Assembly: GCA_012295275.1 (NCBI GenBank)
Contig: CM022670.1
Location: 34,348,001-34,412,000, forward strand
Source of the DNA: Chrysomallon squamiferum
Lineage: Eukaryota > Animalia > Mollusca
Length of the DNA: 64,000 bases
Direction of reading: 5' to 3'
This document shows, in pieces, positions 1 to 64,000 of this stretch. The number at the start of each line of letters is the position of its first letter. The stretch's first letter is position 1. Position numbers and translations under genes: made by a program. The notes under the pieces were generated by a model. That model was not told the origin of the DNA, did not search any database, and worked only from the letters and a program-made list of their open reading frames with translations.

Positions 1-1405
1 ACAGAATGCAAGCAGATCTCCCGGGTTGATGCACGTATTTGAACAGATTAGTTTGTTAACTCTTTAATCGTTGAACCATGAATTTGTTTTGATAACATTG
101 CCGAAATTCCCTCTAGGCGTCAGAAGAAGACGTCATTAATTATTACTTCTCATAACTTTTCGACCGATCTCTTAAATACAGCTTTGATAATACTACAGTA
201 CTGGATTGTTAGCAAAAAAATAAAGTACGTTTTGGATTTTTTTTTTTTTTTTTTTTTTTTTGTGTGTTTGTTTATCTATATATATATATATATAAAACCA
301 GATTTATAACCATTTCTGAAAATACTTAATTTTATTTTTATTTATTTATTTATTAATCTTTTATCATTCTTCCTATTATTTCCCTTTTTCTTTTTTCCTT
401 TATATATTTATTTATTTATTTTTTATTTTCCATCTTCGTATTTTCTTATCTAAATCTTTTGCTGTAAAACAACACTCAGTTCAAACAAAATTGAATTACA
501 CAGAAAATTAATGTTAATCTTTCATTATCCAAGATGCACTATCCAACAAACCAAAAAAAAAAAAAAATTTAATTAATCATTTTCAAAAATACTAATAAAA
601 ATAATCCCGGGTTATACTTTAAAAAAAAATCACTTCCACGATGAAACTCCACACCCGTGAACTCCAAGATGTTTACGCCGAATTCGCCATCATCAACAGT
701 TTAGTGTTGCACTTTTTGCACGGTCAGCTGCACGAGGTTTTGTCTCGTTGCCTCGGTCTCGCCGCACATCGCGCGCTATGTGCGAAACTCTCCGCGGGCC
801 CCGACGCACACCGAGGTCAGCTCTAATCGGGAGAAATTAAGTCCGCAGACATTTCCCACAAACGGAGACGGGAGGGGACTCAGGGGGTGGTCTGTTCTTG
901 CGCGGCCATATTTGACACCCCAGGTCGGAGTTTTAAGATTCATTTCAGTGCAGGCGTCCGGGGGATGTTGAGCAGATCGGAAGAAAACACCCTTGAAATG
1001 AGCGATAATGAAGACGAATGTATCATCATTTTCAGATAACGCGTATTCCCCCTCACTTACTGTTTTGTCCTTTAGCTTCACTGATCCAAGTAACTGATTG
1101 TTGATAGTTGCATTAGTTACTCGGGTCTTGGTAGCATGTGGGTCATGTCATCGATCTGGTGAGTTCGAATCTCCGTAGCTGATCATGTGACCGATAACAA
1201 AAAAAACAAAAAAATAAAAAAAATAAAAATCGCCAAAAAAACAAATAATAATAATAATAAAATCAAAACCAACAATAATAAGTTATCTACTAACTTTCTA
1301 ACTTATAACCAATTGAACGGTTCAAGTTTTGTATCAATAACTTGAACTTTGAGTGAATTTAAGTACAGCCTCCGGCCGATGACATAATCAGTATTTAAGA
1401 AAACA

Positions 1406-1451
<46 letters not shown>

Positions 1452-3439
1452 TGGATAAATTACCTCGTTAAAACCTTGTACTTAAGCCCCCTTGTTCTCA
1501 TATCAAACTAACGAATTTAGCTTGGAGGTGTTTTATTATTTTATTGTGCCAGTCTGAGTATACTGGCTGCTGTGATATGCTACAGTGTAAGTTGCGCAAT
1601 TCAGAAGTGTGGGATTGCCTGCCTAAGTCACTGTTAGGTTGTTAGTTCGTCAGATCAACCCAGCGATAGAATCAGTTTAGCGTCCTTGCTTTTCTGAAAA
1701 TACTACTTTTCAGGGATAGGTCCAAGGCTACTTTGGAGCAACATTTGTAACAAGGATGATGCTATCATATTATTTGATGACATACTGTAGAAGAAATTCG
1801 AGCACCTCTGGCATATAAATACATGCAGCATAATAAACGTTGGCTCAAAGCTGATAGTTCAATCAGTCTGCCATGAATATAAAAGTTGCTTGCTAAGCAA
1901 AAAAGGTGTGTTATATTTTTCAAAATTGTATGTACTAAACAATTTTCCTGAATTATATAAGTTAAGATCAAGACAAGCACACGCGAACTCTCCAGTGATT
2001 GCGTGCTTAACTCGTAGGAACAAAACCAACATGAAAATGATCTTGCAGTGATATCTTGCAATTTAATCCCATCTGAGAAACATAATAGCAAGACACTCTG
2101 CGTAAAGCTGTTATAAGTTACAGTAAAAGCAGATGGAAAGGATTGTTAGTGTATGTAAAAACATTACACGATTAGTTCTCTGCACTGTTTTTAACGGACG
2201 TCATTATAATTTGTACTGTTATGTCTAAAACAAATCACAGATACACCAGAAAATATTAATATTTCATTACAGTATTACAAACTTACCACTGTTAGGTCTT
2301 AATGCCCTATAATTAACGACAAATGGGCGAAATTTCATAGCTAAAAGGATAAAAACCTATCAGTGCATCTGTTATGATGTTACAGTCAATATCACTAGTC
2401 TATCAAAGTCTACGGCACGTGCTTTCCTGCATGTAGGACGATTCACGACAAGAATTTCTTGCTGGTAATGGAAAAAAAAAAAAAAAAGTAACCTATCGCG
2501 ACATTATTATCTTTATGACACTTAAATACAATCAAGATTATGCAACGAATTATCATTCTGTTTAGTTCGTTATCAACTAAAATTAAATATAAACTTTCTT
2601 TTTCATAATTTTCGAAAACATGTGAGAGAAAAATTGTTACTGTAGATCACGCCACTGAGAAAGAAGTATCAGTATTTAAAATGGAGATATCCTTGATTTT
2701 TTTGTTTTGATTTTTTTTTTCCATACCATTATTATTATTATAATATATATTCCCATAGCCGTAAAAGGGTTAAATTTAGTTAATAAGATCATTCGGTGCA
2801 TTGTAAGCTTTTCAGTATATATCTATTTGCGTTTAATATTTCGATCCTGGGGGTGGAGTGCTTTCAAAACTAAAATGACACGTCTAAATATTCTTGAAAT
2901 ATGAAACGCTGTAGGAGTTAGCTACTGTACTGAAACATTTACACATACACTCTTAATCTATGTTTAATTACAGTAATGAGAAAGATCAAGTATATCGTGT
3001 TTGTAGTTTACATAAAAATAATGATTTACTGCATTCTATTTTTTTATTTTTTTTATTTTTTAAAATATTTTATATCTTTTTCTATTTTTTAGTTCAGATA
3101 TTTTAAAAATATATCCATATAATATACACACACTTATTTTTTTTACATATTCTGCCTATTTACATAAATACGTATATACACAGACATATAAACATTGTCT
3201 ATCTCTCCGACATTTACCCACTAATATAATTATTATTATATGCCTACATTCGCATGCACGCGCACACACATACATACACGTACAAACACATGCATAACAC
3301 ATAAAATACATCTACTTATGAACACATTTTTAAAAATGTTCTATCGATACTTATATATCCCTCTTCCTTCTCCAACATAATTCTGTCAAAATTAAAACGT
3401 ACGGTGGGTACCATGTTGCTCTTACAACTATTTATTTTG

Positions 3440-3740
3440 CTAATGATGGTGAAGTTGGCGGTGTCGGTGACTGTAGCGATGATGTTAATCATGATGTCGA
3501 CGATACGTGATGGCGACAGCAACGACATTTACACGAAAACGATGATGTAGCGATAACAGTCGTGCTGGTGTTACTGAAGTCTCAAAATACGACGATGAAA
3601 ATGAGGATGAGGATGATGATGATGATGATGATTGTGCTGATGATGGCGATGATGAAGAAGAAAAAGAAGATGATGATGGCGATGATGAAGAAGAAAAAGA
3701 AAAAGATGATAATGATGATAATAGTGATGATGATGATATC
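3440..3740. repeat. Degenerate (GAT/GAA)n trinucleotide region
   Basis: GAT/GAA runs with an internal duplicated unit GATGATGGCGATGATGAAGAAGAAAAAGAA. Confidence 0.85.
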
Positions 3741-4863
3741 CGATCACCACATACGAAACAAAAGTTATTATTTTTACGTATGCTGTATTAACGTATACGA
3801 TGTACAATATTTTATATTTGTACTTACGAAGTGGTGTTAACCCAAGCAGACGGCGAGTGCTGATATAATTCAAAACATCAGAAGTGAAAACCTCTTCTGA
3901 CGCCACCAGCTTTATCTACAGATGTTCACTTCAATAAAGGAGGCAAAAGAAACCCAGCAGGGACGGGATTCCGGCTCCCCGGGGGTAGCTGTCGTCACTT
4001 AATCATTACACACGCACCCTCTTTCTAGTGATGCTATCTCGGGTCGCTTTCATCGTGTTTCCAGCTAATAAGCTAATTTCGCCCTCGACAGACGTTCAGT
4101 GTCTCCTGGGCGCGAAGAGAGGGCGAAGTTATGAGGCAGATACACAGAGAAATATAATAAATTAACACAAGAGTGTCGGTTAATAAAAGAGAAAATTTAA
4201 TTTATGGCTAGGTTAAGTGAGGTTTCAACAACAGATCTGTGTATCAGATGGTTGTTGGGTCTGTAGAGCATATGTTACATTCGAGTAGTGTCTACAGCGT
4301 CTGATAGGAGTATCTGGTATTAAACAGTGGTACGTGCTGTCATTCTGAATCACACAAGTCAAATTACAGAAATCTTTCTACATCTGATTATACCGTAAAT
4401 ATTAAAATTTCAGTATATAATCGAGCATTTCGAAGGTCTTTATATAAAACGGATTATAATTACAAACTGTTGCTGATAAAAGGTGACTGAGTTAATTTTT
4501 CGGATGCTTAAGCAGGATTTATAAAGGTTATTAAATGGGAAAAATGAGATCAAGGAAAAGTAATATACAAATAAATGAATTAAATGTAATGAAATAATTT
4601 GAATAACTGAATATTTAGGAAACCACAATACATTTTGATAATTTTTAGATATTAATCATGCTTATCATTTTTGATAACTAGTTATAACTAGAGGTTATGA
4701 TAAACCTTTTGGAATGGGAAATAACCAAAGGTCTGTTTACGCATTCATATATATATATATATATATATATATGCATGTATGTATGTATGTATATATGTAC
4801 GTACGTGTGTACTGTATAGATGACTTCTTTTCTTTCACTTTTGCCTTTTTTTTCTTCTTCTTC

Positions 4864-4894
<31 letters not shown>

Positions 4895-5983
4895 TACTAT
4901 TTTCTCCTTTTCACCCATAAAATTGTTAAAACTGTACATCCCCAGTAAACACAAACATCTTCAACGTATTTTGGCCGACGGATTCGCTACTGTTGCCAAA
5001 AACATTCAGTTCATATTTTAGTTCCCGGGTGATGCTCTGCATATACAGAATGTTAAGTTAATGTTACACTGAAGCTTTATCTCTTGTCCATAATTCTTTT
5101 TTTTTTTTCTCTTTCTCTCACCACCCGACCAGGAATGTTACACAAATTGGCAATGCACGCGGGTGCAAACACGCAATTACTCGCGCGCTATTGGCGAGGG
5201 TGAACGAAGATGCGGCCATTCTGGCGCAGTGCCTGCACGTGTTGTGCGTGCAAGAACAAATGGTCTTGATGGGATTCGGAGACTGGCGCGTTGATGGCCA
5301 ACAGTGGATTGATAATGAGAGTCTCTCGTTATCCGCGCTTTGGTGGCCAAAGTCTGTGGCTTCTATCTTAATGGAAGGATGACAAAAATGCTGTTTTGCA
5401 GAAATAAAACACAGCGCCAGTGATAAACCAGTAAATGGTTTAATTAACTGTAACATTCTAGAAGAATTTCCCCAACTGGGTGGCTAGGGTTAGGTGAAAA
5501 AGGGCATCTCTGTAACAAATACTTGATCTTTGCAGAAAAAAAAAAAAAAAAAAAAAAAATGTATTATCAAGTGAAGTTAAACAGAAACTAGATAATAATA
5601 ATATTATATGTGCCGACCCGACCTTTGGGTTATTTGTGTGTTTTTTTGTTCCCACCCAACCTTTTTTTGTGGGGGAGGGGGATGGATCTGGGGTTTTTGA
5701 TCCAGTGTAATTTTATTGTCGATTGTTTTTATATTTGTTTGACTTATTGTTTTGCTGGGTTTTTTCAGATGATAATTATTTTAATTATAAAAGTTATATT
5801 CATTACAATGATGGTGTCCTCTTTTATACAGAAAGTCTAAAATCGTCTAGAACCATTCACTTGAATGGTTAAGAAATCAGATTTCTAAAACGTATCATTT
5901 GTTCTCAACTTCCAATTTTTATGACTCAGTCTACTTAAATTTTGAATAATATACCGATATCTTTCAGGAAAATAGAAAATATG

Positions 5984-6015
<32 letters not shown>

Positions 6016-6499
6016 ATATAATCAAATAAAATAAAATAACATGTGCTTAATAAAAATTAAGTCGCTGATTTAATCTGGTTAAAAATTACGAATTACGACG
6101 GGTAAAAGATAAACGGACCTTCCATAAAATGACAGCCATATGAAGAAAGCCTTTAATAAATCAGATAACGTGCACTGATTGGAACGGGAAATTATTTAAC
6201 TTGTGCACCGAAGTGGATGTATATCTGTCGTCAGGCCTTGAGGAAACGAATGTGTACTAGAATATAAGTTGGTACGGATAAATGTAGACCTGTATGTAGA
6301 CATGTTTGTTCACTCAGTCTTTGAAGTAAATATTTCATTGTTTATCTTACCAATAAAAGAATTAAAAAAAAAAAAAAAAAAAAATGAAGGTAATAATTAA
6401 TGTAGCTTTAATATTTGTCCATAACGAGTGATTAATTAAATGATTATTATTTTACAGCCGAGCAACGAGTTTTGATGAGCGTTATACAATGCCCTATCA

Positions 6500-7167
6500 A
6501 GCTGCTGTTATTCGTTAATTGATTCAGGTGAACACCCAAACACGTCATAACGGCTGAAGTGATTGGGTTGTTATTGCTTCAAGTATTCACCCCGTTTACA
6601 AGCAGTTTGCTACCTGATTGGGTCCGTTTCTGCATGTGTGAGCATGTCTGGACAATGCATATTCTGAAAAGCATGTGGTTTTGTTATGCGCAACAGCCTC
6701 CACTCTGGCAAGGGACCGCGCAGGTTGGCGTTCTATTACAGGAGTGGGAACACACACTCACTGGAAGTTTGTCGTTAAAGCGGGAAAGTGTTTCGCTTGT
6801 CTGTCCCCTTCGCCTCGTTTTACTGGGAAATATCCTCGCGTCGTGCCGTCTGGGTAGCACTTCTTCTCAGCGACAGCAACCGCCAAAGGGGTAACGAGAG
6901 AGAGAAAGAAAAAAAAAAAAAAAAAAAAATCTAAATCGTATCTGATTCGTCAACCGGATAAAAATATTTATAGAAAAAAAAAATTGGGACAGTCCCGATA
7001 AGTTGCAGGTACAAATGTCGGCTGTACGGACGTAATACGGGAGGTCAGTGTAGGTTTTTGTGAACGTTGATCATCATCGTGTCTTTTCGTGTGTTCAGGG
7101 ATATTACGGGAATATGTTCCGAATTTCCAGATACAAATTATCCTGACCACATCGGGTGTTGAGCGCC
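6500..7167 (+). promoter_or_regulatory. CpG-rich promoter / 5'UTR region of the Ig-domain gene
   Basis: CpG-retaining, relatively GC-rich block directly upstream of a Kozak ATG (7168). It contains two reverse CCAAT boxes (ATTGG at 6562-6566 and 6617-6621) and a CRE-like CACGTCA at 6541-6547. The TSS cannot be located from sequence alone. Confidence 0.55.
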
Positions 7168-7240
7168 ATGGATCTGTACCGCCTGTTAAGGTCGAGTTTG
7201 TTTGGAGTACTTATTTTCTTGGTGTCGCACGGAATCTCAG
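7168..7240 (+). CDS. Coding exon 1 of a spliced Ig-superfamily gene: signal peptide MDLYRLLRSSLFGVLIFLVSHGIS
   Basis: Strong Kozak context gcgccATGG. Basic n-region, hydrophobic core LFGVLIFLV and small residues at the end. Ends CAG|GTGAGT in phase 1, and G+AT gives Asp in frame with the exon at 35165. Confidence 0.8.
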
Positions 7241-8049
7241 GTGAGTTGTGTGTCTCGTACTGTCACTGCACGCAGGTGACAGAGACCGCCAGCGAGCGCG
7301 TGTGTTGGTTCAGTCAGCCTGGTAGTAAAACACGTCTCTTCTCCACGCGAAAGACGTCGAATTAACGTTGATTGAAATTGTCGTTTAGAAATTAGTGTGT
7401 GTTTGATTAAAACGTACGTTCTGTTCACACAGTTGGATCGATTATTTTTCACCTGTGTCCTAGAGAGGGACAAAAAAAAAAAAAAAAAAAAAAGTAAACA
7501 AAATAGGCCCTATTTAAAATAACAATAAGATAACCACACCTTTTGGTATAATTGTTAAAGAAATGATAATGTTGATTCAGAATTTAGGTATTTAACCCAA
7601 CACTTTATTATATAATCTTTATTCTTCAATATCTTGTTGTGAGGAAAATAAATTTAGTCTTTAATACATACATTTTATATTTTTAACTAAAATGTTATAA
7701 AGAAATTGTATATTGCAAAATAGTTTTGGTCAGGTATAATTACATACAAACCTGAAATTAGAAATTATGTCATAAACCAATAAAAAAATATATATTTTCT
7801 TCTGAAATAAATTTATCCACAGAGAAATGGTAGAGAATTGGTTCCATTTTTCCTTCATCTATGTGTTTGTATTACTCAACAGCTAGTGTTAAAGTTTGAT
7901 AAAGTTATGTAACTATGTAATCACAGTATTTGATGTGTAGATAAATTTACACACATACTATCAATCTTTCCATCTATCTTTCTATAAGCACACCACAAAT
8001 ATTTTGTTTTACACAATTCTAAAATGTTATCTAATTCCATAGGAATTGC

Positions 8050-19294: not shown

Positions 19295-19770
19295 CAATAA
19301 GCTAAGAAATATTTTATTATTTTAATTTTGCAATAACAAAAATCCAAGAATTTCAATTATTTTAATTTTATTATAATGAAAAGTCAAGAATTCTTATATT
19401 ATTTTAATTTTACAATAATAAAAAGCCAAGAATTCTTTTATTATTATAATTTTGCAATAACAAAAAGCCAAGAATTCTTTTAATTTAATTTTGCAATAAC
19501 AAAAAGCCAAGAATTCTTTTATTTTCATTCTGCAATAACAAAAAGCCAAGAATTCTTTTATTATTTTCATTTTGCAATAACAAAAAGCCAAGAATTCTTT
19601 TAATTTAATTTTGTAATAATAAAAAGCCAAGAATTCTTTTATTATTTTCATTTCGCAATAACAAAATGCCAAGAATTCTTTTATTTATTTTAATTTTGCA
19701 ATAACAAAAAGCCAAGAATTCTTTTATTTATTTTAATTTTGCAATAACAAAAAACCAAAAATTCTTTTCA
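19295..19770. repeat. Minisatellite, ~39-43-bp unit, ~12 copies
   Basis: Recurrent TTTTGCAATAACAAAAAGCCAAGAATTCTTTTA core with length variants. Confidence 0.95.
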
Positions 19771-20384
19771 TTTTGCTTTTATGACTTCTTGTCTTCTTTC
19801 ATCTACCCTTTCTTCTGCTGTTTTTTCTCAATTGTATTTCATTTAAATATATGTAAATAAACATTCCTTTTATTTTTTTCTATCCCTTTCTCTGCATTTT
19901 GTCTTCTCTTTTTTTTCCAAAAATTAATCCATTGTTCATTTCTGAACAGTGCTATTCTCCTCCAGTGTTCACAGAAACCATATTTCTTTCTCTGATAACC
20001 CATAAACTTCAGAGTTTGTTTTGTAATATGATAGAATTATGTTTGCCTACCTGTGTGTTTACTGCAATGAGTGGAATGTAAGCAATGAGGGGATATAGAT
20101 TTTTTTTCTTTTTTTTTTTTGTACTTGATTGTTTCTGACGTACACCTTTTTGAAGCCCTTAGAGATAACCACCAAGTTGTCTGAATGTTGGACAGATTTT
20201 ATAAACTCACATGTAGTGTTCTTATTAAGTCACTTTGAAAATGTTTCTTTTAAGTCAGTTTGCGGTTGTTTCGGTTATGCTAGTTTCCAAATGTTCCTGT
20301 TACATCATTTTACAGATCTGTTTGTGTTTAGTTTCTTTGAAAATATTTCTCTTTAGTTGATTTGAATTTTTTTTTGTTACGTCG

Positions 20385-20930
20385 TTTTGTCATTTTACAA
20401 ATGTTTCTTGTAATTTTCTCTGACTTTGTAAATCTTTTTAAAGTGATTGAAGATTACTAGAAACATTTTCTGTCACTTTGTAAATGTTTCTAGTATTCTT
20501 CAGTCACTTTGTGAATGTTTCTAGTATTCTTCACTCACTTTGTAAATGTTTCTAGTATTCTTCACTCACTTTGTAAATGTTTCTAGTATTCTTCACTCAC
20601 TTTGTAAATGTTTCTTGTATTCTTCACTCACTTTGTAAATGTTTCTAGTATTCTTCACTCACTTTGTAAATGTTTTTTGTATTCTTCACTCACTTTGTAA
20701 ATGTTTCTAGTATTCTTCACTCATTTTGTAAATGTTTGTAGTATTTTCTGTCACTTTGTAAATGTTTTTAGTTTTCTTCTATCACTGTAAATGTTTTTAG
20801 TATTCTTCAATTATTTTATAAATGTTTCTAGTAATCTTCTATTTTGTAAATGTTTCTAGTAATTTTCTGTCACTTTGTAAATGATTCTAGTGTTCTTCTG
20901 TCACTTTGTAAATTTTTCTAGTATTCTTTT
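20385..20930. repeat. Minisatellite, 31-bp unit, ~17 copies
   Basis: Unit CACTCACTTTGTAAATGTTTCTAGTATTCTT; homogeneous in the centre and degenerate at both edges. Confidence 0.95.
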
Positions 20931-35164: not shown

Positions 35165-35443
35165 ATCTGAAAATAACCCGACCCCCACGCAATGAGACCG
35201 TCCTGGAAGGGCGTCGCTTCAGCTTCCCCTGCAAGGCCAAGGGTCACCCCCCACCCCGCATCCGCTGGTTTCACAACGGAAATGAGCTGTACAAAGACGG
35301 ACGCAACTACCACATCTCCAACAAGTCTGGAACTCTGCGCTTTTCCAAGGTTGACGTCATCGACCGAGGAGAGTACCAGTGTAAGGCTGAAAACGACGTG
35401 GATGCCGATGTGCTGTCAGAAAAAGTCTATCTCACTGTCAACG
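35165..35443 (+). CDS. Coding exon 2: complete I-set-like immunoglobulin domain (Ig1)
   Basis: Acceptor tttgatttcag| and donor |gtaagt; 279 nt, phase 1-1. Translation DLKITRPPRNETVLEGRRFSFPCKAKGHPPPRIRWFHNG...GTLRFSKVDVIDRGEYQCKAEN...VYLTVN shows the canonical C, W and DxGxYxC residues and N-glycosylation sequons NET and NKS. GC-rich codons against an AT-rich background. Confidence 0.95.
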
Positions 35444-35965: not shown

Positions 35966-36314
35966 TAAATACCAAAGGAAGTTTATCACTTCTCATGGCT
36001 TATTCTTACTGATAAACATGCATAATTTACATGCATGTTACCATAAAAGCATATACATATATGATAATTTTCAACCAATGAATACTGGTCCTATGGAAAA
36101 TGGACTAGTGAATCTATGGCTTAATCATAGAGAAATCAAATATGTGACTTCTGCAGTCTTTGGAATAAGAAATATATGTTTTTAATAGACAAAGTCTGGT
36201 TCCTAGCAGAATACACTGTCAAGCAAATAAAACAGATAAATAGATTACAGATAACCTAGTAAAACATTTTCATTAAATTGTTTTCTCAAAACTAATGTTA
36301 ATAATATTTTTCCT

Positions 36315-38295: not shown

Positions 38296-38550
38296 CTTCT
38301 TTCTTTCTTTCTCTGAAGACCAACAAGTCTACATAAAAGTGCTGGATCAATCTGACAAGAGATTTAACTTTTTATGAGGTCATATTATTCTACCCTGCTA
38401 GACAGTGTAATATGCTAGGAACCAGACGTTGTTTGTGTGGGCCCCTGTATGGTGGGCAATGGACTGTGACTGGTGTTCATTGTCACAAATGATTTCAATT
38501 GTTATAATTCAGGCAGCATTTGGTAGCTTGGAAATAACAATAACAATAAC

Positions 38551-40856: not shown

Positions 40857-40984
40857 CTAAAGCAACCATCTACGAGTGGTCACACACTAACCGGAGAGTG
40901 AAGCACGGACAAGAAATCCACCTAAGATGTCAGGCGATTGGAATTCCTTTACCAACCGTGCAGTGGAAGAAAAATGGCAAACTG
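40857..40984 (+). CDS. Coding exon 3: N-terminal half of second Ig domain
   Basis: Acceptor gtgtttttacag| and donor CTG|gtatgt; phase 1 in, phase 0 out. Reads AKATIYEWSHTNRRVKHGQEIHLRCQAIGIPLPTVQWKKNGKL, matching the Ig LxCxAxGxPxPxVxWxKNG motif. Confidence 0.92.
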
Positions 40985-45906: not shown

Positions 45907-46099
45907 ATCACAAACCAGGATTCAAGCATCAAACCATTTGTTGAAATTGTCCAGTACAAGAAAAAGAACACTGTGAGAGCGACACTGATCATTGTGGTGA
46001 ATGAAAGTGCTGAGTACGAGTGTGAAGCAGTGAATAATTATATTGGAGGTCCAGGGTCTGACTCGAAGAAAGTTGTCATCAAAACTACACCACCCAGAA
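45907..46099 (+). CDS. Coding exon 4: C-terminal half of second Ig domain plus Thr/Pro linker
   Basis: Acceptor tttatttcacag| (phase 0, matching exon 3) and donor A|gtgagt (phase 1). Reads ITNQDSSIKPFVEIVQYKKKNTVRATLIIVVNESAEYECEAVNNYIGGPGSDSKKVVIKTTPPR, with the YxCxAxN motif that completes the Ig disulfide. Confidence 0.9.
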
Positions 46100-54965: not shown

Positions 54966-56174
54966 ACTGTGAAAGGTACATAAATATATATAAAAAAATA
55001 TATATATATATATGTAGATTATGAAGTAAATTAATAAATCAGCAGCAGGCAAGTCTTTGATAAACTCATTAGCTATATTCACCATCACATATTATTTATG
55101 ATTTCACCAGTGTTTATTACCAGTGTGCTAGTCTTCCACTGATAAGTCCTGTCTAAGATTACACGAAGGTAGAACGTGGCTCTAAGCTAGTATTCCTTCC
55201 TTCCTTCCATGCACTGGAAGTCAGTTCCTGGCTGCCTCTAGCCTGCTCTGCAGTGGTAAGATCTGTCCCCAGTCTGCATGCACTGGATGGAAACTGTGTG
55301 ATAAGTGTGATAGCTGTCTGCGGAGTGTGATGTAAAAATCTCTCTCATAAAACTTAGTGTGGAATTAACAGCAAGTCGCGTTTAACACTAACAAATGTCA
55401 GCAGTGGTTGAGGATTTAATTTTTGAGACTTGTTCATTGAAGTAGTTGTTGGAAATGGCCGGCGATTATGAAAAGTGGTGAATGCTCTATGTTTTATCCA
55501 TCGTTTTTGTTTTCTTTGGGGAAAAATAAAGTTTTAAAAAATATTTAAATTTTGGAAAAAAAAAAGAAATGAATTATGAAGATGAAAGTGTGAGTGTTGT
55601 AGAATATTGAAAATTACTTGAAATGGATGATCCTCATTCTAGAATTATTCCCAAAGTGAAAAATTCACATTCCATTTTGTGACTGAATATGTTTACTTAC
55701 TGCATTATGGAATTGCTTAGATATGGAGCAGTCTGTTCATTTTTATTCTTGGACAAAGGAATTTAAATATCTTGAATAGCAGCATTTCACTGGAACAAGA
55801 AATCATCTACATTAAACCATACATCACTGGAATAAGTTTTAGGAATTATTTTGAATAAAAGTGTTAAGCTGTTTATAGGTTGGAATCATTATCATCTTTG
55901 GAGTTATCTTAATTATATATCTAAGTGTTAAACAGCATCACAGATACATTGACTGAGTTTATGTTAATTAGATATGAAATTACATGAACTGAACTATGTA
56001 ACAGGACCTTGAAAATAAGTATGTTAAACTCATATTGCTCTGGTATATATCTGGATTAAGCCAGCATCTCAAAGACTCAGTTGACCTTTTTCTAGACTTC
56101 AGAACTGTATTAATTATAGATGGAAAAAATTTATTTACCAGCCCTTGGGAACCAAGTATAAACTGAAGATGTTA

Positions 56175-56835
56175 ATCTGAGGAATCAAGTGTAGTGAATA
56201 GTGGAGCTCTGGGATCAAGTTAACACAGCCAGAGACTGGCTGGAATTATTCTGAATTTTTTTAAACTTTAGTAATTGTATATTAAATGTATTAAACAGCA
56301 TCAAAGGATTAAGGAATTAAGAATAATCTGAGGAATCAAGTATAGTAATTGGATGGATTTGTGGGGATCAAGTTGATACAACAGAGACTGGTTGGCTGTG
56401 TTCTTATATTTTTGGAATTATATTGTTTATAAATATAAAAACTTTCAGGAATTAAGAATTAACTGAGGAACCACGTGTAGCAAATTGCTGGAGTTGTGGG
56501 ATCAAGTTGACAAAACAGACTGGCTGGCGATGTTCTTCCTTCATATTTTGGAATTGTATGGTATATAAAAAATAAATAAATTGAACTATATCACAACTCT
56601 CAGCAATTAAGAATTAACTGAGGAACAAGTATAGTAAATGGGTGGAGTTGCAGGTTGACAAAACATAGATTGTTTGGAATGGTTCTTCAGTGTTTGGAAT
56701 TACATATAACATTAGGTGTACTGAATAGTGCCAGGGGACTGGGGAACTAAGACTAAACTGAGGACCAAGTGTGGTAAATGGGTGGAGCTGTGGGATCAGG
56801 TTGACACAGCAGAGATTGGCTGGAAGTGTTTTTCT
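56175..56835. repeat. Diverged tandem repeat, ~136-155-bp period, 5 copies
   Basis: CTGAGGAA.CAAGTrTrGT...TGGAG.TGTGGGATCArGTTGACA.AGCAGAGAyTGGyTGG in units starting at about 56175, 56325, 56461, 56616 and 56756. Confidence 0.9.
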
Positions 56836-57361
56836 GTGACTGCCCAGTGTACAGCAGGTGTAGGCAGATCTCTGGGACTGATCACATGTGTTGTGGAGTG
56901 GCTGCCTTCTCTGTTGAAATACACTGGTCAAATCAGCCTGTGCTTTACGAGTGCTGGTCAGATCTTCTTGTTTTGCCATTATCAGTAAACTGTGTGGTTA
57001 AATGGTTTAGTGGAATCCTGGAAATCACTGGAAACATATATAAAAAAAATATATATATAAGCTTGGTTGACATACAGAATTGAGCTGATACTAGATTATG
57101 TTGTGGAAGAATCATGGTTTTAAAAAGTCAGTGATGAAAGCTGGATTCATCATCAAACATGATTACAAAGTAACTGAATTAATTTCAAAAAGTAGAGAAG
57201 CTAAATTATAATAGTGTTGTGTGAAAACATGTTACAAACCCAAGCCAGAATTTTGTTTGCATTGTGAGTGATGCTGAGTGACTTGACATTCAATTAAGAA
57301 GTTCTGTGTGGAATGACTTGAAGTTTTGTTTGAAGATTAATTTTTTGAGTACCTTGGCACC

Positions 57362-57480
57362 ATGGCCAGGTGTAATATGAAACAGTGTGTTGAGTATTGT
57401 GTAACAATGTTTTTCTTATGGAGTATTGTTTTTTTCTCTTTCATGTTGACTGCAGAAACGTCAAGAAAGCCTGGTGTCTG
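57362..57480 (+). CDS. Candidate exon of the same gene: 25-nt internal micro-exon (57456-57480, (K)TSRKPGV-) and/or alternative first coding exon from ATG 57362
   Basis: Pyrimidine tract plus tgcag| at 57455 and strong donor CTG|GTGAGT at 57481. It is open in the frame delivered by exon 4. The upstream gcaccATGG (57362) opens the same frame: MARCNMKQCVEYCVTMFFLWSIVFFSFMLTAETSRKPGV. No downstream partner exon was identified in the window. Confidence 0.55.
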
Positions 57481-57818
57481 GTGAGTAATGTTTTCTCTGT
57501 TATTTCTGTGAGTAATTTGTTAATGCTTGCACCATATGTTGTATAAATTATAATAAATGGTCACTGCCTATACAGTTATATTTCAGTGAATTACTAACCT
57601 TTCAGTTGAAGATTGCTGTGAAATTCTTACAGCTTGAACCTGCATTAACAAACCACCTGCTTTAATACAATAACATTCAAACTTTTGCCATAGTGTTAAA
57701 ATTTTTAACTTCCTTTAACAAAGTGCTTCATCATGACAATTATGTTGAAAGTTCTGCCAAGGTTTTAAACCGTTTTTTTTTTTTTTTTTACTTGTTGCAC
57801 CAGCCTTATTGCAATGAC

Positions 57819-59045
57819 TGAAAGAAATTAGTTTCATTTCACCATATAATTAATTCTAATGGTAATTATAAAATCATGGCAATACAGCCAGCTTCACTTT
57901 TGTGTTATTTTCATAGCAATATTTTTTTTAGTTTCCCCTCAAACTTAAACCTTTGTTTTTTGGGGGAGGGGGGGATATATTCTTTTAAAACCCATGTATT
58001 ATAGTAGTAAATTTTCAAGGTTATTTAAATTGTTCAACCTGCTTTGAAAACCACCCTGCATTATAACAAGAATATTTCATAGTTATGCCAAAAATTTGTA
58101 ACAGTGCAGTAGCATACATTATATATAGAACAGCAGCTGCTTTACAAATGTCAAGATAAGTTTTATACAATATCTTGATATTTTATTATTAAAATATCCT
58201 TGCTAATATTAGTAAAGAATTCAGAAGCAAATAATTTTTCCTTTCTCTAGTCAGTAATGAAAACAATACTCAAATTTTCGTGTTTGTTAAAAAAAAAAAA
58301 AAAAAAACACAGAAAGTTTGTACATTTGTGAAATTAAATAGAACACATCACTTAATATCTATACTGTAAACCAAATTTTCAAAAAAAAAACACTTTTTCA
58401 AAACAAATATTATTCCTGCTGAAATTTGGCAAACTCACTGACATTTACTTTCTCTTTATTTTGTTTTATATTTTTATAATTGTCTTCCACTGTTCCAGAC
58501 TGTTACAGTTAATTCAGACTTTATGGGACATAAAACAGCCAATAACTGCAGAAGGACCATTTATTCAGACTGAGCATCATTAACAATAAACTAACTCACC
58601 CAGCCAATAATTAATCAATCTGTCCATCCACGTATTCATCCTTCATTCACTCATTCATTTATTCTATACATTCATCCAGCTAACATCTATCCATCTGTCA
58701 ATCAGTCTATACATCTGTCCATTCATTCTTCCATCCATCACGTCTGTCCATACATACATTCACCCATCAGTCTAAACATATATCAATCTATCCATTCAGT
58801 CCATTCATTCTTTCATCCATTCATTCTTTCATCCATTCATCCATCCATCCATATTTTCATCCATTCATCCATCCATCCATCCATCCATCAGTTCATTCAG
58901 TCATTCAGTTGTTAGGTCAGCACCAGCATGTTAACATATGTAAATGACACACACCACTGATGCAGCCTGCAAATCACACACGCTTTCATAATTACCATTA
59001 GAATTAATTATATGAAAATTGGTGAAATGAAACTAATTTCTTTCA
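57819..59045. repeat. Long-range inverted repeat: arms 57819-57869 and 58988-59045
   Basis: 57819-57844 is the exact reverse complement of 59020-59045, and 57843-57869 of 58988-59014. Together 51 contiguous nt of the left arm pair perfectly, with a single 7-nt bulge in the right arm. Confidence 0.95.
58610..58910. repeat. Degenerate (TCCA/TTCA)n microsatellite inside the loop of the inverted repeat
   Basis: Seen directly; a similar tract lies at 49010-49160. Confidence 0.9.
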
Positions 59046-59614
59046 TTCATACAGTGTGTTTGCTGTAAATTATTCACTGGTTAGATGCTTAATACAGCCA
59101 TGTTGACAACCGCAAAACACTTACTCAGATGTTTAATTTTTATGATTTGAATTATAATTCTTTTCTGTTTGTAATCATATAAATTAAGTCATAGCTAGGG
59201 TGTGGCTTTTTGACTTTGTAGAATTAATATTATAATAATAGTGAAGTTCTGTTTTATATAGCTGTCTTTATTTTCTCTTTTTCTTGCTACTTTTTCTTTT
59301 TCTCTCTTTCTGTCTCTCTTTCTGTTTCAGTTATTTCTTTAAAAAAAAAAAATTGTGTAAGGAGTGGACACAGCATTTTTCACTAATCTATTAATGATTT
59401 AATTTCCCATACCAAATATTTTTTTCTGACACATAAAAGAGAAAGAGGGGAAAATTCAGTGATTCACATTGGACTTCAGCTGTGCAGGATTGGCTAATTT
59501 ATTTTTTCAAGCATGTCAAGATAGTTTACCGTAATTTAACACTGAAATCATTTTTAATACATGATGGAAGAAATGCCTTCAACAGTGCTGAATATGGAAA
59601 TAATGTCTTTGAAA

Positions 59615-59805
59615 ATTTCAATAAGAGGAATTCAAAAGAAAACAAAAATCTGAATAGGAGATTCAAAAGAAAAGAAAATTTTAATAGGAGATGTTAATTG
59701 GAAAATTGCATAGGAAGAAACTGAAAAAAATATATATTTAATAGGACAAGATACAGAAGAAAATAAATTCTGAATAAGAAGGAATTTAGAAGAAAAAGAA
59801 AACTT
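59615..59805. repeat. Degenerate A-rich ~30-bp tandem repeat
   Basis: AATAGGAGA/AATAAGAGG plus AAAAGAAAA recur about 6 times. Confidence 0.6.
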
Positions 59806-61903
59806 ACACTGATATGGTTTCAGAATATTCTATGTATCTCTATCTTTTCACTCATCATTAAGGCCTGGGCAAACATTTCTTAATGGATATTTTTGTTGAT
59901 TCATTTTAATGCTTTGAACAAGGTGTAATGACCATCTTATGTAACGAATGCCTCCAGAACCCAAATGTTAGTGTTGCTGAAGATAAGATTAAGTCTTTAA
60001 TTAGCAAGTGACAAACCTGATCACACAAATGAATACATCCATCACTCAGGTTATCAGACCAAACTGCCACTGGTCAACCAGAACCAGGTGGAAAACACAC
60101 CAACTTGTTACTCCTAATTGGAAGCATGGGCACCTCTCTATTACAGCAGTAGAGAACTGGTCAGCCAAGCCAGAGCTGATGTGTCATGTGCTGGCTATTA
60201 GGCATCCATGTTAGGTAGTGGTCATGATGACTGTTAAGGGTCCATGTATTGGGGTGGTCATATCTCTTTTGCCTGGTGAGGAAAGCTGTAATATGATGTT
60301 TTACATTATTGTTGATTTACTGGACAAATACCTATTGTACAGTATTTAGATAAAATCTGAGACTTCAGAAAACTGGGATGTAGTCTGGGATTGGAATTGG
60401 GATCAAACAGATTACACTAATTGGAGCATGCTTTTATCAAAATAATTTTATCTCTGGCACAGATCTGTCTGATTGGGAAATCTACATAAAACAAATGTCA
60501 ATGTTTATATGATTGGTTGAAGATAAGTGTAGTTGTTTAAAACTATCCCAGCAGGCTCTGGTTAAGCATTAGTATCTTTACTTCTACATCACCTAGACTA
60601 GTTGGGAAATTGTGTCTTCAGTATTATACCAGTTTTAATGCAGTGTTTTAAATGGTGACAATGATTACAGTGTTTAAACGATAGAGAACATTTGGCCATG
60701 AGTCCAAGGTTAAAATGAAATGTTGACTGTTTACTCATGGTTTTGAATTGTACAGTAACAAGGCATTTGAGTAAAATACACAGAGATCACATTAGTTTGG
60801 TGTTAATCATAATGTCACTACTTCATGGAAGCATTTATGCAGTACCAGTATTCTTGGCAGAAATTAAAGTCTTATTTACTTAGCAAAATTTTGCTATGTT
60901 ACTGTTTCCATTAACTGATTAAGAATGAATAATAATATATGAAAATGTGTCATTTTATTCCCTTATCTTGTAACAAAAACCATAGACTAACAAAAGTAGT
61001 CACAACAAAACATGAATGAATTTAATGAAAGTATAGATATTAGATATTAGACCTCTGTTTTTATTACATTATCATTTTTACAAGAAAACTAATTTAATTA
61101 AAAAATCTTTAAGTATTGTCTTAAGATGTTAAATATTAATTTGTTGTTGTTCTGGAAGAGTTTATTTTCTGAACTGTTTTGTTTTAAAACAGTTAACATT
61201 GAAAGTCATCAACCAGCACAAAGCATACACTTCTCAAAGATCCACTTTTATTACCAGTCATGCTTTTTTCTTCACTGAGTTTATGTCATCTCATGTACCT
61301 GTCTGATTGTGTTAATTCTGGCCCATGATTTACTAGTGGATACCTGTAACATGTCACATATGCATGCATCTCTGTTCTAGTTTTTATACAATTTATTGCA
61401 TCATTAACCATTAATTTTGGTTAGAAAATGTTGAGTCACAGTGACAAAGTGATAATTGTGAGTTAAAATAACAACACTAAAAGATGTTGATGTATTTCAT
61501 ACAAAAAAAAAAAAGAGCTTGAAAACAACCCATCAACAAAAACTTTTACCAGTGCCTTTAACATTTAATAGCTTTTAAGACATGTAAAATGAGGCAAGAA
61601 ATTGTAATACTTTAAAATGTTTGTTCTGTTGTTTGTCAACACAAAAGAGCCATTTTTAGCATAGATGAACAGAAAGGTATGCAGTTATCAAAATGGCATT
61701 TATGGTATGTGAGTGAATTTGTGGTTAACAACACTTAAAGATATTTTTGTTTTAATTTTATGAGAAAGGAAAGCAGGTACTGCCAGTTAAAGAACTTTGG
61801 TTTATGTAGGAGATAGCACTGAAGAGAACTGATCTCACAGTCTGTTGTTACACAAATACTCTGCAAAAACCAATAAAACACATGTGAGCATGCATGCATA
61901 CAT

Positions 61904-61940
<37 letters not shown>

Positions 61941-64000
61941 AAATACATATACATTTAGGCACTTGCTCACATGCACATCAAACATACATGATAACATAAA
62001 GAAATTCCTTTACAGATCTGAAACCTTTGCACTAGAAGTGACATACAAGCGATATATAACACCTGCAGATCATATTTACTTATTCCTGGCATTCATAAAT
62101 TTTGTTAACTGATAAAAGATAATTTTTATTGGTAAGTTTGTTAGATTGTAAATGGCTTAACAGAAGTTTCAAGAAACAAAAATAATTTGATCTCATAAAT
62201 TATATAAAGTATATTTGGTCAACATGAATTTTCATTAAAGACAGATAAATTAATGAATTTGTAATTGCCATGGTATTTTCAGTATACTGATATGATTTTA
62301 TGAAAAACGGCAAGTTAGAAGTAACATCCTCATATTTTATTTCTTTACACTAACTTTGTAAGCAGAATCTTACTGATTTCAATCTTTTTATCTCAACTGA
62401 TGCCAAAGCCAACTTTGTTTGGTTTTTCTTTTTACTGAATATCTTATAAAGAAATCAGAAAGGATTGCTTTTCAGAAAGACTTCTCTAATCCATTTGATC
62501 CGAGGTGCAGGGTGTCTAGATAAGAATCAAAGATATTTTTTTGTTTTGCTTTGCTCTGTCTTGTTTTTGTAGATATATTCCTCAAGTCCCCAGTCTGACT
62601 TTGTTCTGTTCTGACTGGAAACACCTCAAGACTCCTGGGACTTTGCTTTGTTTCTGTATTTACATTAATCACTGTATCTTTCTGATGTCGATCAAGGAAT
62701 GTGGATAACTTTTTGCTTGAGACACACTTACAGTCATAGAAGAACAAATATTTAGTCATCTTTTAAGAAATTAAGACTTGTAAGTGATTCCAGCCTTTTC
62801 ATTATTGTCCAGTATTTTTGCTTCTATTTAAACAGTTGTAAGAGTTGTCCTGCCACTGCTGAAGTATTAAATGACATGGTGTATTTTCCTCTCAGTAAAA
62901 GATCACTTACTGACAATTGTGACTCTTTGAGTTGTTTCTGCAAGTTTAATTAGAAAATATTGAAAGTACATGTTGAAATATCACTGTTTGAAAAGCAGTA
63001 AAGAAATCTGTTCATTTATTCCAGTATGTGGAATGTCATTTTTGAAAAATCGTTTTCCTTCTTTAGTCATATACATTGTTGTTAGAAAACTTGTATGTTT
63101 AGATATTTATCCACAGATTATGAAATAAAGAAAAAAGAAATACAGCACTTTCAAAGTAATTAAGACATTAATCTTTTTTTTTTTTTAAAGGAAAATATGA
63201 TGATTTCTTGCCCAGGATTTCAAGCTTAGACTATGTTCAGATTATAAATAGGAAAACATAACAAATTAAACTGACAGTCTGAATAATAACAAGAACAAAA
63301 CAAGATTTTGTTCCTAAATTGTAGATAAAATATGAAACTCTGAATACTAGACAAAGTATTTGATACAGTGCCTGCATTAATATATATATTTAACTGCTAG
63401 GAGATATTGTAACATGTATTTATTTTTACAAAACAAAAATAATTCAAAAACAGATATCCTTGTAAAACTATATGTTGACTTCTGGTTGTTGTTTTTTTCT
63501 ATTTCTATATCCCAATGCTTTGCCTGCATGCAGTCTGTTAATTCTGGAAAACAAAGCTTTGTTGAAGAATATGAAGATATTAGGTTTTTATATCTTATAA
63601 TCCAGTGTTTTGGCTGTTTGCAATCCAGTGTCTGAGTGTTTTGAAAGCTGATAACCTAGAAGGCAATTTGATAAGATTTGGAATCGTAATCTGTTCCTTA
63701 CCAGATGTATGAATTCAAGTCTTGTTCTGCTTGTTCAATGATAACACTGATGCAGGGAAAAACTGCAGACCTGCTAGTTTAACTTTTGTCAGTTTTTGCT
63801 TATATTATGCTTGCAATATTAATAAATATTTTGAAAGGTATATTCCTATAAATTAAGACATTTGGCAGTGTCATGTTTTGGTTTTTCTGTAGTTTACGAA
63901 ATGCTTTAGCAATGATAAACACAGTAAATTAATTGGTTGTTAATGTCTTTTTAATTTCCTACATGTAAGATATTGAGAAAGAGAAATTTTGACATTTAAA

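Follow-up and report, generated by a model that had tools for sequence, protein, structure and literature searches.

An intron of an immunoglobulin-domain gene contains two segments, about 1.1 kb apart, which are complementary to each other and are predicted to pair in the pre-mRNA. This raises the question of what such a duplex does for its gene, if it does anything, and of how it came about. The window, that is, the whole stretch of DNA that was analysed, comprises 64 kb; it is AT-rich, microsatellite-rich animal DNA.

A sequence-only reading of this region had described 51 contiguous nucleotides which find a perfect partner interrupted by one 7-nt bulge, and this was confirmed letter for letter. 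Pairing is perfect over 26 bp between 57819-57844 and 59020-59045 and over 25 bp between 57845-57869 and 58988-59012, with the bulge (59013-59019) lying between the two helices.

57819-57869, plus strand: 5′ strand of the perfect core (26 + 25 bp)
58988-59045, plus strand: 3′ strand of the perfect core, with the 7-nt bulge at 59013-59019

Among the reverse-strand self-matches of the 64-kb window, the core ranks first (E 6e-16). The energy computed for its duplex is -76.2 kcal/mol, compared to -18.7 +/- 3.6 kcal/mol in 500 shuffles, the best of which reached -35.9 kcal/mol, so that the claim of a core beyond chance stands. When 57000-59340 is folded, the core pairs with a probability of 0.98-0.99. 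None of 4227 Rfam families matched the window at its gathering score. No other copy of the arms occurs within the window. The DNA depth of run X1 over 58955-59270, which includes the 3′ arm, equals that of a single contig, which argues against a further copy at 85% likeness among the pieces listed (12 pieces and 7 loose ends lie beyond these). A 21-nt motif from the core has two matches in metagenome contigs, both in DNA that is unrelated beyond the 23 nt concerned and thus attributed to chance, and the core has no match in viral contigs. The complementarity is real, as is the long-range duplex proposed for the transcribed strand of the intron, and these searches revealed no multicopy element; its job has to be inferred from the surrounding gene.

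The host gene could be followed through the window as an open reading of 232 codons up to position 57480, with a signal peptide and two Ig domains.

7168-46099, plus strand: upstream exons of the host gene, with signal peptide and Ig I-set
7168-7240, plus strand: signal-peptide-like exon
35165-35443, 40857-40984 and 45907-46099, plus strand: Ig I-set exons (Pfam)
57456-57480, plus strand: internal exon of 25 nt which continues the frame of the signal-peptide and Ig exons and is followed by the 57481 donor
55151-57480, plus strand: likely long alternative first exon (covered by RNA contigs from 55151 onward), with donor 57481 in common with the 25-nt exon

Five of 11 sequencing runs were compared with the window (X1, X2, X5, X6 and X7; X3, X4 and X8-X11 were left out). 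X1 and X2 are DNA, while X6 and X7 are RNA runs from one study, represented by contigs only. The RNA pieces listed cover 55151-55753 and 55808-57481 in X6, and 55258-56315 and 56739-57481 in X7. In both runs they stop at the 57481 donor, followed by 4 and 2 unaligned letters, whereas the DNA contigs of X1 and X2 continue. The reading enters the 25-nt exon in phase 1 and leaves it in phase 2, so that a transcript without this exon would be out of frame. Together with the RNA contigs that end at 57481, this suggests that it is not a cassette exon. Another of its proposals, an exon with both a start codon at 57362 and an acceptor at 57456, gained support from contig ends and phase. From the ATG at 57362, a hydrophobic reading that resembles a signal peptide runs in the same frame through the pyrimidine tract of the acceptor (hydropathy, phase). 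Three contigs (X6 record 16, X7 records 22 and 23) break off at the point where, with an assumed k of 31, a 31-mer would have its start at the 57456 acceptor, and X7 record 24 starts at this point. As the long RNA pieces reach 57481 and the contig ends are placed by the 57456 acceptor, they weakly suggest a hybrid exon, which would combine the long first exon and the 25-nt internal exon with one active donor.

The X6 and X7 contigs contain no RNA joint to an exon within 57481-64000, and the next exon thus likely lies beyond the window. Loose RNA ends at 59356, by a donor-like site that follows an acceptor at 59331, are likely low-complexity matches to another transcript. They were set aside because their first base differs from the base that follows the exon in other contigs.

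Neuregulin/vein-type ligands carry one or more I-set Ig domains followed by an EGF domain, according to excerpts of PMC4914847. The host gene, with its signal peptide and two Ig domains in the window, is only a candidate for such an EGF ligand. Pfam reports I-set only, PDB and representative-protein searches return generic multi-Ig proteins, and a search of the host protein in the Atlas returns generic Ig clusters. One close homolog, P0151, is 77% identical in Ig1 and carries no name. Searches for longer homologous proteins gave no match, the Ig1 exon has no match in viral contigs, and a regular-expression search of the window for an EGF motif yielded nothing credible.

The 5′ arm of the duplex coincides with a splice-like arrangement in this intron.

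57773-57803, plus strand: candidate cryptic acceptor, with a T17 tract at 57773-57789 and its first downstream AG at 57802-57803
57804-57861, plus strand: candidate 58-nt cryptic (poison-type) exon, inside the 5′ arm, with a donor-like site at 57862

In our own scoring the candidate acceptor reaches 0.79, compared to 0.44-0.70 for the five real acceptors of the gene, and is among the four best of 752 in the window. By the same self-made scoring, the donor-like site ranks 14th of 349 GT sites in 57490-63990, with a score near those of two real donors; it lacks the +5 G that is present in all five real donors of the gene. If the putative exon is spliced after 57480, an in-frame stop results at 57829-57831. 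Acceptor and donor motifs with an in-frame stop, as characteristic for a poison exon, were thus found, but RNA inclusion was not: among the X6 and X7 RNA rows listed there is neither a joint nor a contig end at 57804 or 57861. The 5′ arm is covered by unspliced RNA pieces only (X6 and X7, in contigs which drop rare forms). X6 has no RNA cover over 58920-59219, and this was not used as evidence.

The core can be extended in both directions, and it is here that natural alleles come into play. With the alleles that are commonest in the other samples, the duplex is lengthened to about 75 bp, between 57800-57878 and 58979-59066.

57800-57878, plus strand: extended 5′ arm; given the alleles that are most frequent in the other samples, it is part of a duplex of about 75 bp
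58979-59066, plus strand: extended 3′ arm, with 4 listed variant sites
57879-58978, plus strand: loop of 1.1 kb, variable between samples, with a CATT/CATC tandem array inside

The ends of the extended 5′ arm, 57800 and 57878, bracket the candidate acceptor (57802-57803) and the donor-like site (57862). Segments of 79 nt with such an acceptor at their start and a donor make up 0.09-2.4% of those in the window when the donor threshold is set to the level of real donors, and as much as 4.1% when it is loosest, in a test of boundary overlap that was devised post hoc. In the predicted fold with the duplex, the donor-like site is 0% open, and the common alleles leave 3-6% of the AG open. When the 3′ arm is removed, the AG is predicted to be 87-99% open and donor positions +3 to +6 to be 78-90% open, while positions -3 to +2 are still locally paired. 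For the haplotype of the window itself, the prediction leaves the AG 65-70% open. The acceptor end thus seems to tolerate loss of pairing, which counts against a suppressing function.

The alleles at 58981, 59051 and 59066 gain pairs relative to the window. The variant at 59012, the sole one listed in the 102-nt core, retains a U-G pair on the plus strand. The four arm alleles, pooled from different runs, stabilise the duplex by 10.8 kcal/mol, which was matched by 11 of 2000 random sets. Two-sided compensatory changes are absent from the 40 of 47 difference rows listed, which are within-species data. Such restoring alleles fit both selection and decay, as they are also expected under neutral decay when it is the window that has the derived allele. 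Mismatches between the arms are concentrated peripherally, and simulations of uniform decay produced two unbroken runs of at least 25 in 0.03-0.8% of cases. With a homologous periphery, the core runs are improbable; with a non-homologous one, the stabilising alleles are unexpected. Either way, a non-neutral or homogenising process is suggested. Selection on the duplex is suggested.

Of the 40 listed differences, 36 fall into the loop and four into 58979-59066, with none in 57230-57878 or 59067-59270. By per-run totals, the remaining seven all belong to X7 (one in 57456-57702, one in 57800-57934 and five in 58904-59189; three of the seven are A>G). The extended 5′ arm therefore has no listed difference in X1 and X6 and at most one unlisted difference in X7. 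For 57230-57883, no difference is listed where 8.4 (X6), 10.9 (X7) and 4.2 (X1) were expected (Poisson p = 0.002, 0.001 and 0.015, respectively); these expectations derive from the longest listed contig pieces, and X6 and X7 have alleles in common. The core alone shows no significant depletion of variants (Fisher p = 1.0, clustered events). Across 59067-59270, neither X1 nor X5 has a variant, but the depletion there is not significant (p = 0.15, clustered events). X1 has another invariant stretch, of 786 nt, elsewhere, and X2 has three unplaced differences within 57078-57757. By raw count, the loop has three poly(A) hexamers.

The reading that we favour, at somewhat less than an even chance, is that the cryptic 58-nt exon is suppressed by the duplex of about 75 bp, which covers its full length, acceptor and donor included. 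The arms would form this duplex in the pre-mRNA and thereby hide the candidate exon end to end. If the 3′ arm were missing, 57480 would be spliced to 57804, and nine codons after this joint a stop would be met in both 5′ forms of the gene. Inclusion of the stop would lead either to decay or to a truncated secreted product. If cryptic inclusion is harmful in this way, selection would preserve the core intact. The duplex probably arose by a local inverted duplication and would then have been retained.

Long-range base pairing in introns has precedents. In Dscam1 and 14-3-3, docking/selector pairing over long distances controls exon choice, and ADAR uses editing-complementary sequences. In the docking/selector system, mutually exclusive exons form a cluster, and every one of them has a selector that competes for one docking site. 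What our case has in common with Dscam1, 14-3-3 and ADAR is long-range intronic base pairing in the pre-mRNA. Unlike in Dscam1 and 14-3-3, the core overlaps no used exon, and no duplicated exon, competing selector or second partner was found within the 64-kb window.

Cases with cryptic exons are more closely related. In BRD2 and BRD3, disruption of an intronic complementary pair raises the inclusion of a stop-bearing cryptic exon, as stated in excerpts of PMC10789245. The combination of an intronic complementary pair with a stop-bearing cryptic exon is similar to that proposed here. In these excerpts, the BRD2 pair is located in the introns that flank the exon, whereas in our case one arm is the candidate exon itself, covered by about 75 bp. 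The same excerpts report conservation and function for BRD2 and BRD3, while the candidate exon is predicted from sequence motifs and a modelled fold. In the pseudoexons of ATM and CFTR, according to PMC1935003, unused splice sites are likewise silenced within stems; the ATM pseudoexon folds on itself, whereas here the partner is 1.1 kb away and nearly perfect. Pairs of conserved complementary regions (PCCRs), as outlined in parts of PMC8052449, are also intronic, within 10 kb of each other and very stable. By the PCCR-type thresholds (intronic, less than 10 kb apart, below -15 kcal/mol), the duplex with its 1.1 kb and -76 kcal/mol falls into this range; PCCRs are defined by cross-species conservation, while the comparison of the duplex covered samples of one species. 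The same paper reports that PCCRs are under-represented where splice sites are active and over-represented where they are inactive or cryptic, a preference that agrees with the cryptic-exon reading and not with masking of a donor. By analogy, the duplex would work like these poison-exon, pseudoexon and PCCR structures. An exon that is first in one transcript and internal in another is also described in excerpts on hybrid first/internal exons (PMC8769537); there it is junction reads that identify such exons, while 55151/57456-57480 is proposed from contig ends. Among the matches listed in a literature search on long-range pairing and poison exons none mentioned molluscs, which does not establish the element as unpublished.

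Next in standing is the possibility that a neutral local inverted (templated) duplication of 50-80 nt pairs in the pre-mRNA without any effect and that the splice-like motifs are incidental. We consider this rather unlikely, but it is a serious rival. Templated inverted insertions are a known product of repair. A neutral duplication accounts for the single copy, for the lack of a target-site duplication and for the restoring alleles. Inspected by eye, the mismatches of the extension do not favour either strand, with three G-U pairs on the plus and two on the minus strand, and three polymorphisms break peripheral pairs in some haplotypes. Moreover, a second, unrelated long-range inverted match exists in another intron of the window. 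Several observations are not accommodated so easily: the arms diverge non-uniformly, their boundaries match the candidate exon, and both vary little while the loop between them varies densely. The T-run next to the breakpoint could have caused the duplication and not have been its target, which would speak against suppression. Whatever its effect, a local inverted duplication is the likely origin of the duplex, and a transposon is an unlikely one. When the common allele is placed at 59051, a direct repeat of 3 nt bounds 57814-59050 (by eye); it was taken as a by-product of a local 4-nt palindrome.

The duplex may also serve another role, either as an ADAR substrate or as a scaffold whose outer stack loops out the hybrid exon together with its start codon and thereby tunes the 5′ forms or intronic polyadenylation. 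We regard this as unlikely, although several findings point in its direction.

57115-57231, plus strand: 5′ strand of the outer stack (weaker short helices, borderline)
59099-59226, plus strand: 3′ strand of the outer stack (borderline)

The minimum-energy fold includes this stack, while 57250-57800 folds on itself inside it, so that the real exon would be looped out and not masked. Helix probabilities are 0.19-0.80 for the window and up to 0.98 for the X7 alleles. On the plus strand the z values are -4.3 (window) and -5.6 (X7 alleles), compared to -1.9 and -3.2 on the minus strand, with boundaries that were picked after the fold had been seen; the earlier statement that outer pairing favours the plus strand is thus borne out. 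For the 5′ piece, no other among 747 windows did better, and for the 3′ piece 6 of 871 did as well or better. The X7 alleles stabilise the stack to a degree matched by 6 of 907 random sets, but mainly through one site, 57219, and an allele of X6 has a weakening effect. A blind control gave a z of -4.33 or below for 3 of 73 segments; for the real segment it gave -0.9 and did not select the outer stack. In addition, its 5′ partner is located in a variant-rich stretch with six sites in 57131-57219. We therefore regard the outer stack, as modelled, as borderline. In human, editing sites are over-represented in stable long duplexes, according to parts of PMC8052449. For the X7 RNA contig over 58904-59189, at depth 3, between 1 and 3 A>G differences were deduced, which may or may not reflect editing; in X6 the contigs contain no A>G in the 5′ arm.

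Suppression and the outer stack can be combined into what may be called an antisense lid. The inverted copy would cover the whole poison exon, alleles would open or close its acceptor end, and the outer helix would loop out the hybrid exon, so that natural cis-variation would set the output of Ig-containing versus Ig-less forms of the gene. We hold this composite to be quite improbable.

Very improbable is the model put forward in the sequence-only reading, in which base pairing of the 3′ arm to the first exon bases and to the 57481 donor governs inclusion of an alternative exon. All eight outer helices it listed can be drawn, but most cannot be distinguished from chance. In the full ensemble, the probability is 0.00 for 57627/59068, 57584/59079 and 57456/59134, 0.02 or less for the donor-masking helix 59114-59127 / 57482-57494, and 0.07 for 57204/59159 and 57194/59166. 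Only 57159/59178 (0.80) and 57115-57131/59210-59226 (0.64-0.72) hold. The first outer helix (59062-59068 / 57627-57633) is broken by the 59066 allele, which occurs in two of the three other runs that cover the site. When the donor region was scanned against the whole window, rank 160 went to the proposed partner and rank 74 to the best one within the arm. Summed over all partners in the 3′ arm, pairing of the 57481 donor amounts to 0.08. Invariance of 57230-57480 in X1, X6 and X7 would agree with donor pairing, as would an alternative 12-bp partner of the donor (57478-57489 / 59069-59080), which belongs to the best stem chain; the total of this chain is better than that of 374 of 377 shuffles. 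Attractive as it is in the chain, this helix has a probability of 0.01-0.05, and its neighbours at 57386 and 57361 have 0.23-0.33 and 0.00, respectively; it was rejected. With RNA contigs that stop at the 57481 donor and a frame that is broken by exon skipping, masking of this donor by the 3′ arm is not supported.

Least probable of all is a MITE or DNA transposon, about 1.25 kb long, with the arms as its terminal inverted repeats: two inverted ends do flank a 1.1-kb interior, but a target-site duplication was found at none of six end pairs (with the alleles of the window), and the X1 depth equals a single contig.

If the duplication is neutral, it is an ordinary one. Long-range intronic duplexes on cryptic or poison exons are an established class in mammals, and the value of the case described here thus lies in the example and its geometry and not in a new principle. 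If the duplex does suppress the exon, it would be a natural and clear-cut example of how a short inverted duplication has been recruited to silence a cryptic exon. As alleles are predicted to open or close the acceptor, this could be tested by allele-specific splicing, without engineering.

Two splice-related features accompany the long-range inverted matches in the introns of the host gene:

59262-59357, a pair of acceptor-like and donor-like sites just beyond the 3′ arm of the main duplex (58979-59066), with the donor-like site at 59357
38402-38446, a candidate exon of 45 nt located 3′ of a long T-run and overlapped by the 3′ arm (38396-38432) of a second inverted match

The acceptor-like site of the first pair, with an exon start at 59331, is the top-scoring one in the region 57510-63990 (0.81 on our self-made score). 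No credible use of the 59331 and 59357 sites was found in the RNA contigs. Beyond the donor at 57481, the path in the contigs of RNA run X7 splits at the third letter into two 32-nt records with depths of 8 and 14.8. In the next exon this letter would fall at a third codon position, which makes the fork a likely synonymous variant.

The second inverted match (36189-36225 with 38396-38432) is found in the intron which separates Ig1 and Ig2. Self-comparison of the window gave 89% identity over 37 nt (E 4e-6), and pairing that includes the flanks reaches about -62 kcal/mol.

The self-comparison also revealed a direct match (57634-57690 with 58033-58090, 76% over 59 nt) which joins the start of the intron after 57480 to the loop of the main duplex. 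Other contigs of DNA run X1 and of run X5 carry matches to two 35-nt pieces (57651-57685 and 58362-58396), which suggests that these pieces are small repeat fragments. Elsewhere, tandem arrays at 19386-19775 and 20399-20886 contain internal palindromes that produce self-inverted matches.

P0151, a close homolog of the Ig1 exon (77% identity), and P0152 are unnamed gene calls of 139 aa each. They originate from ENA contigs of 405,575 and 362,247 bases, and the orthologous intron may fit within the span of these contigs.

CpG is undepleted in positions 1-7500 (observed/expected about 0.9-1.4 in all listed 500-nt windows except one) and is scarce across most of the host gene body, where the only rise noted is a small one at 55250-55500. 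This rise lies close to a likely second start of the host gene. The likely long 5′ UTR of the long-exon form contains 40 upstream ATGs, and a degenerate tandem repeat at 56140-56830 (4-5 copies, period about 135-165 nt) sits within it. Within 57362-57455, the acceptor at 57456 has a pyrimidine tract that also serves as coding sequence. In the long-exon form, this tract specifies the hydrophobic core of an N-terminus that resembles a signal peptide, and the product of this form would be devoid of Ig domains.
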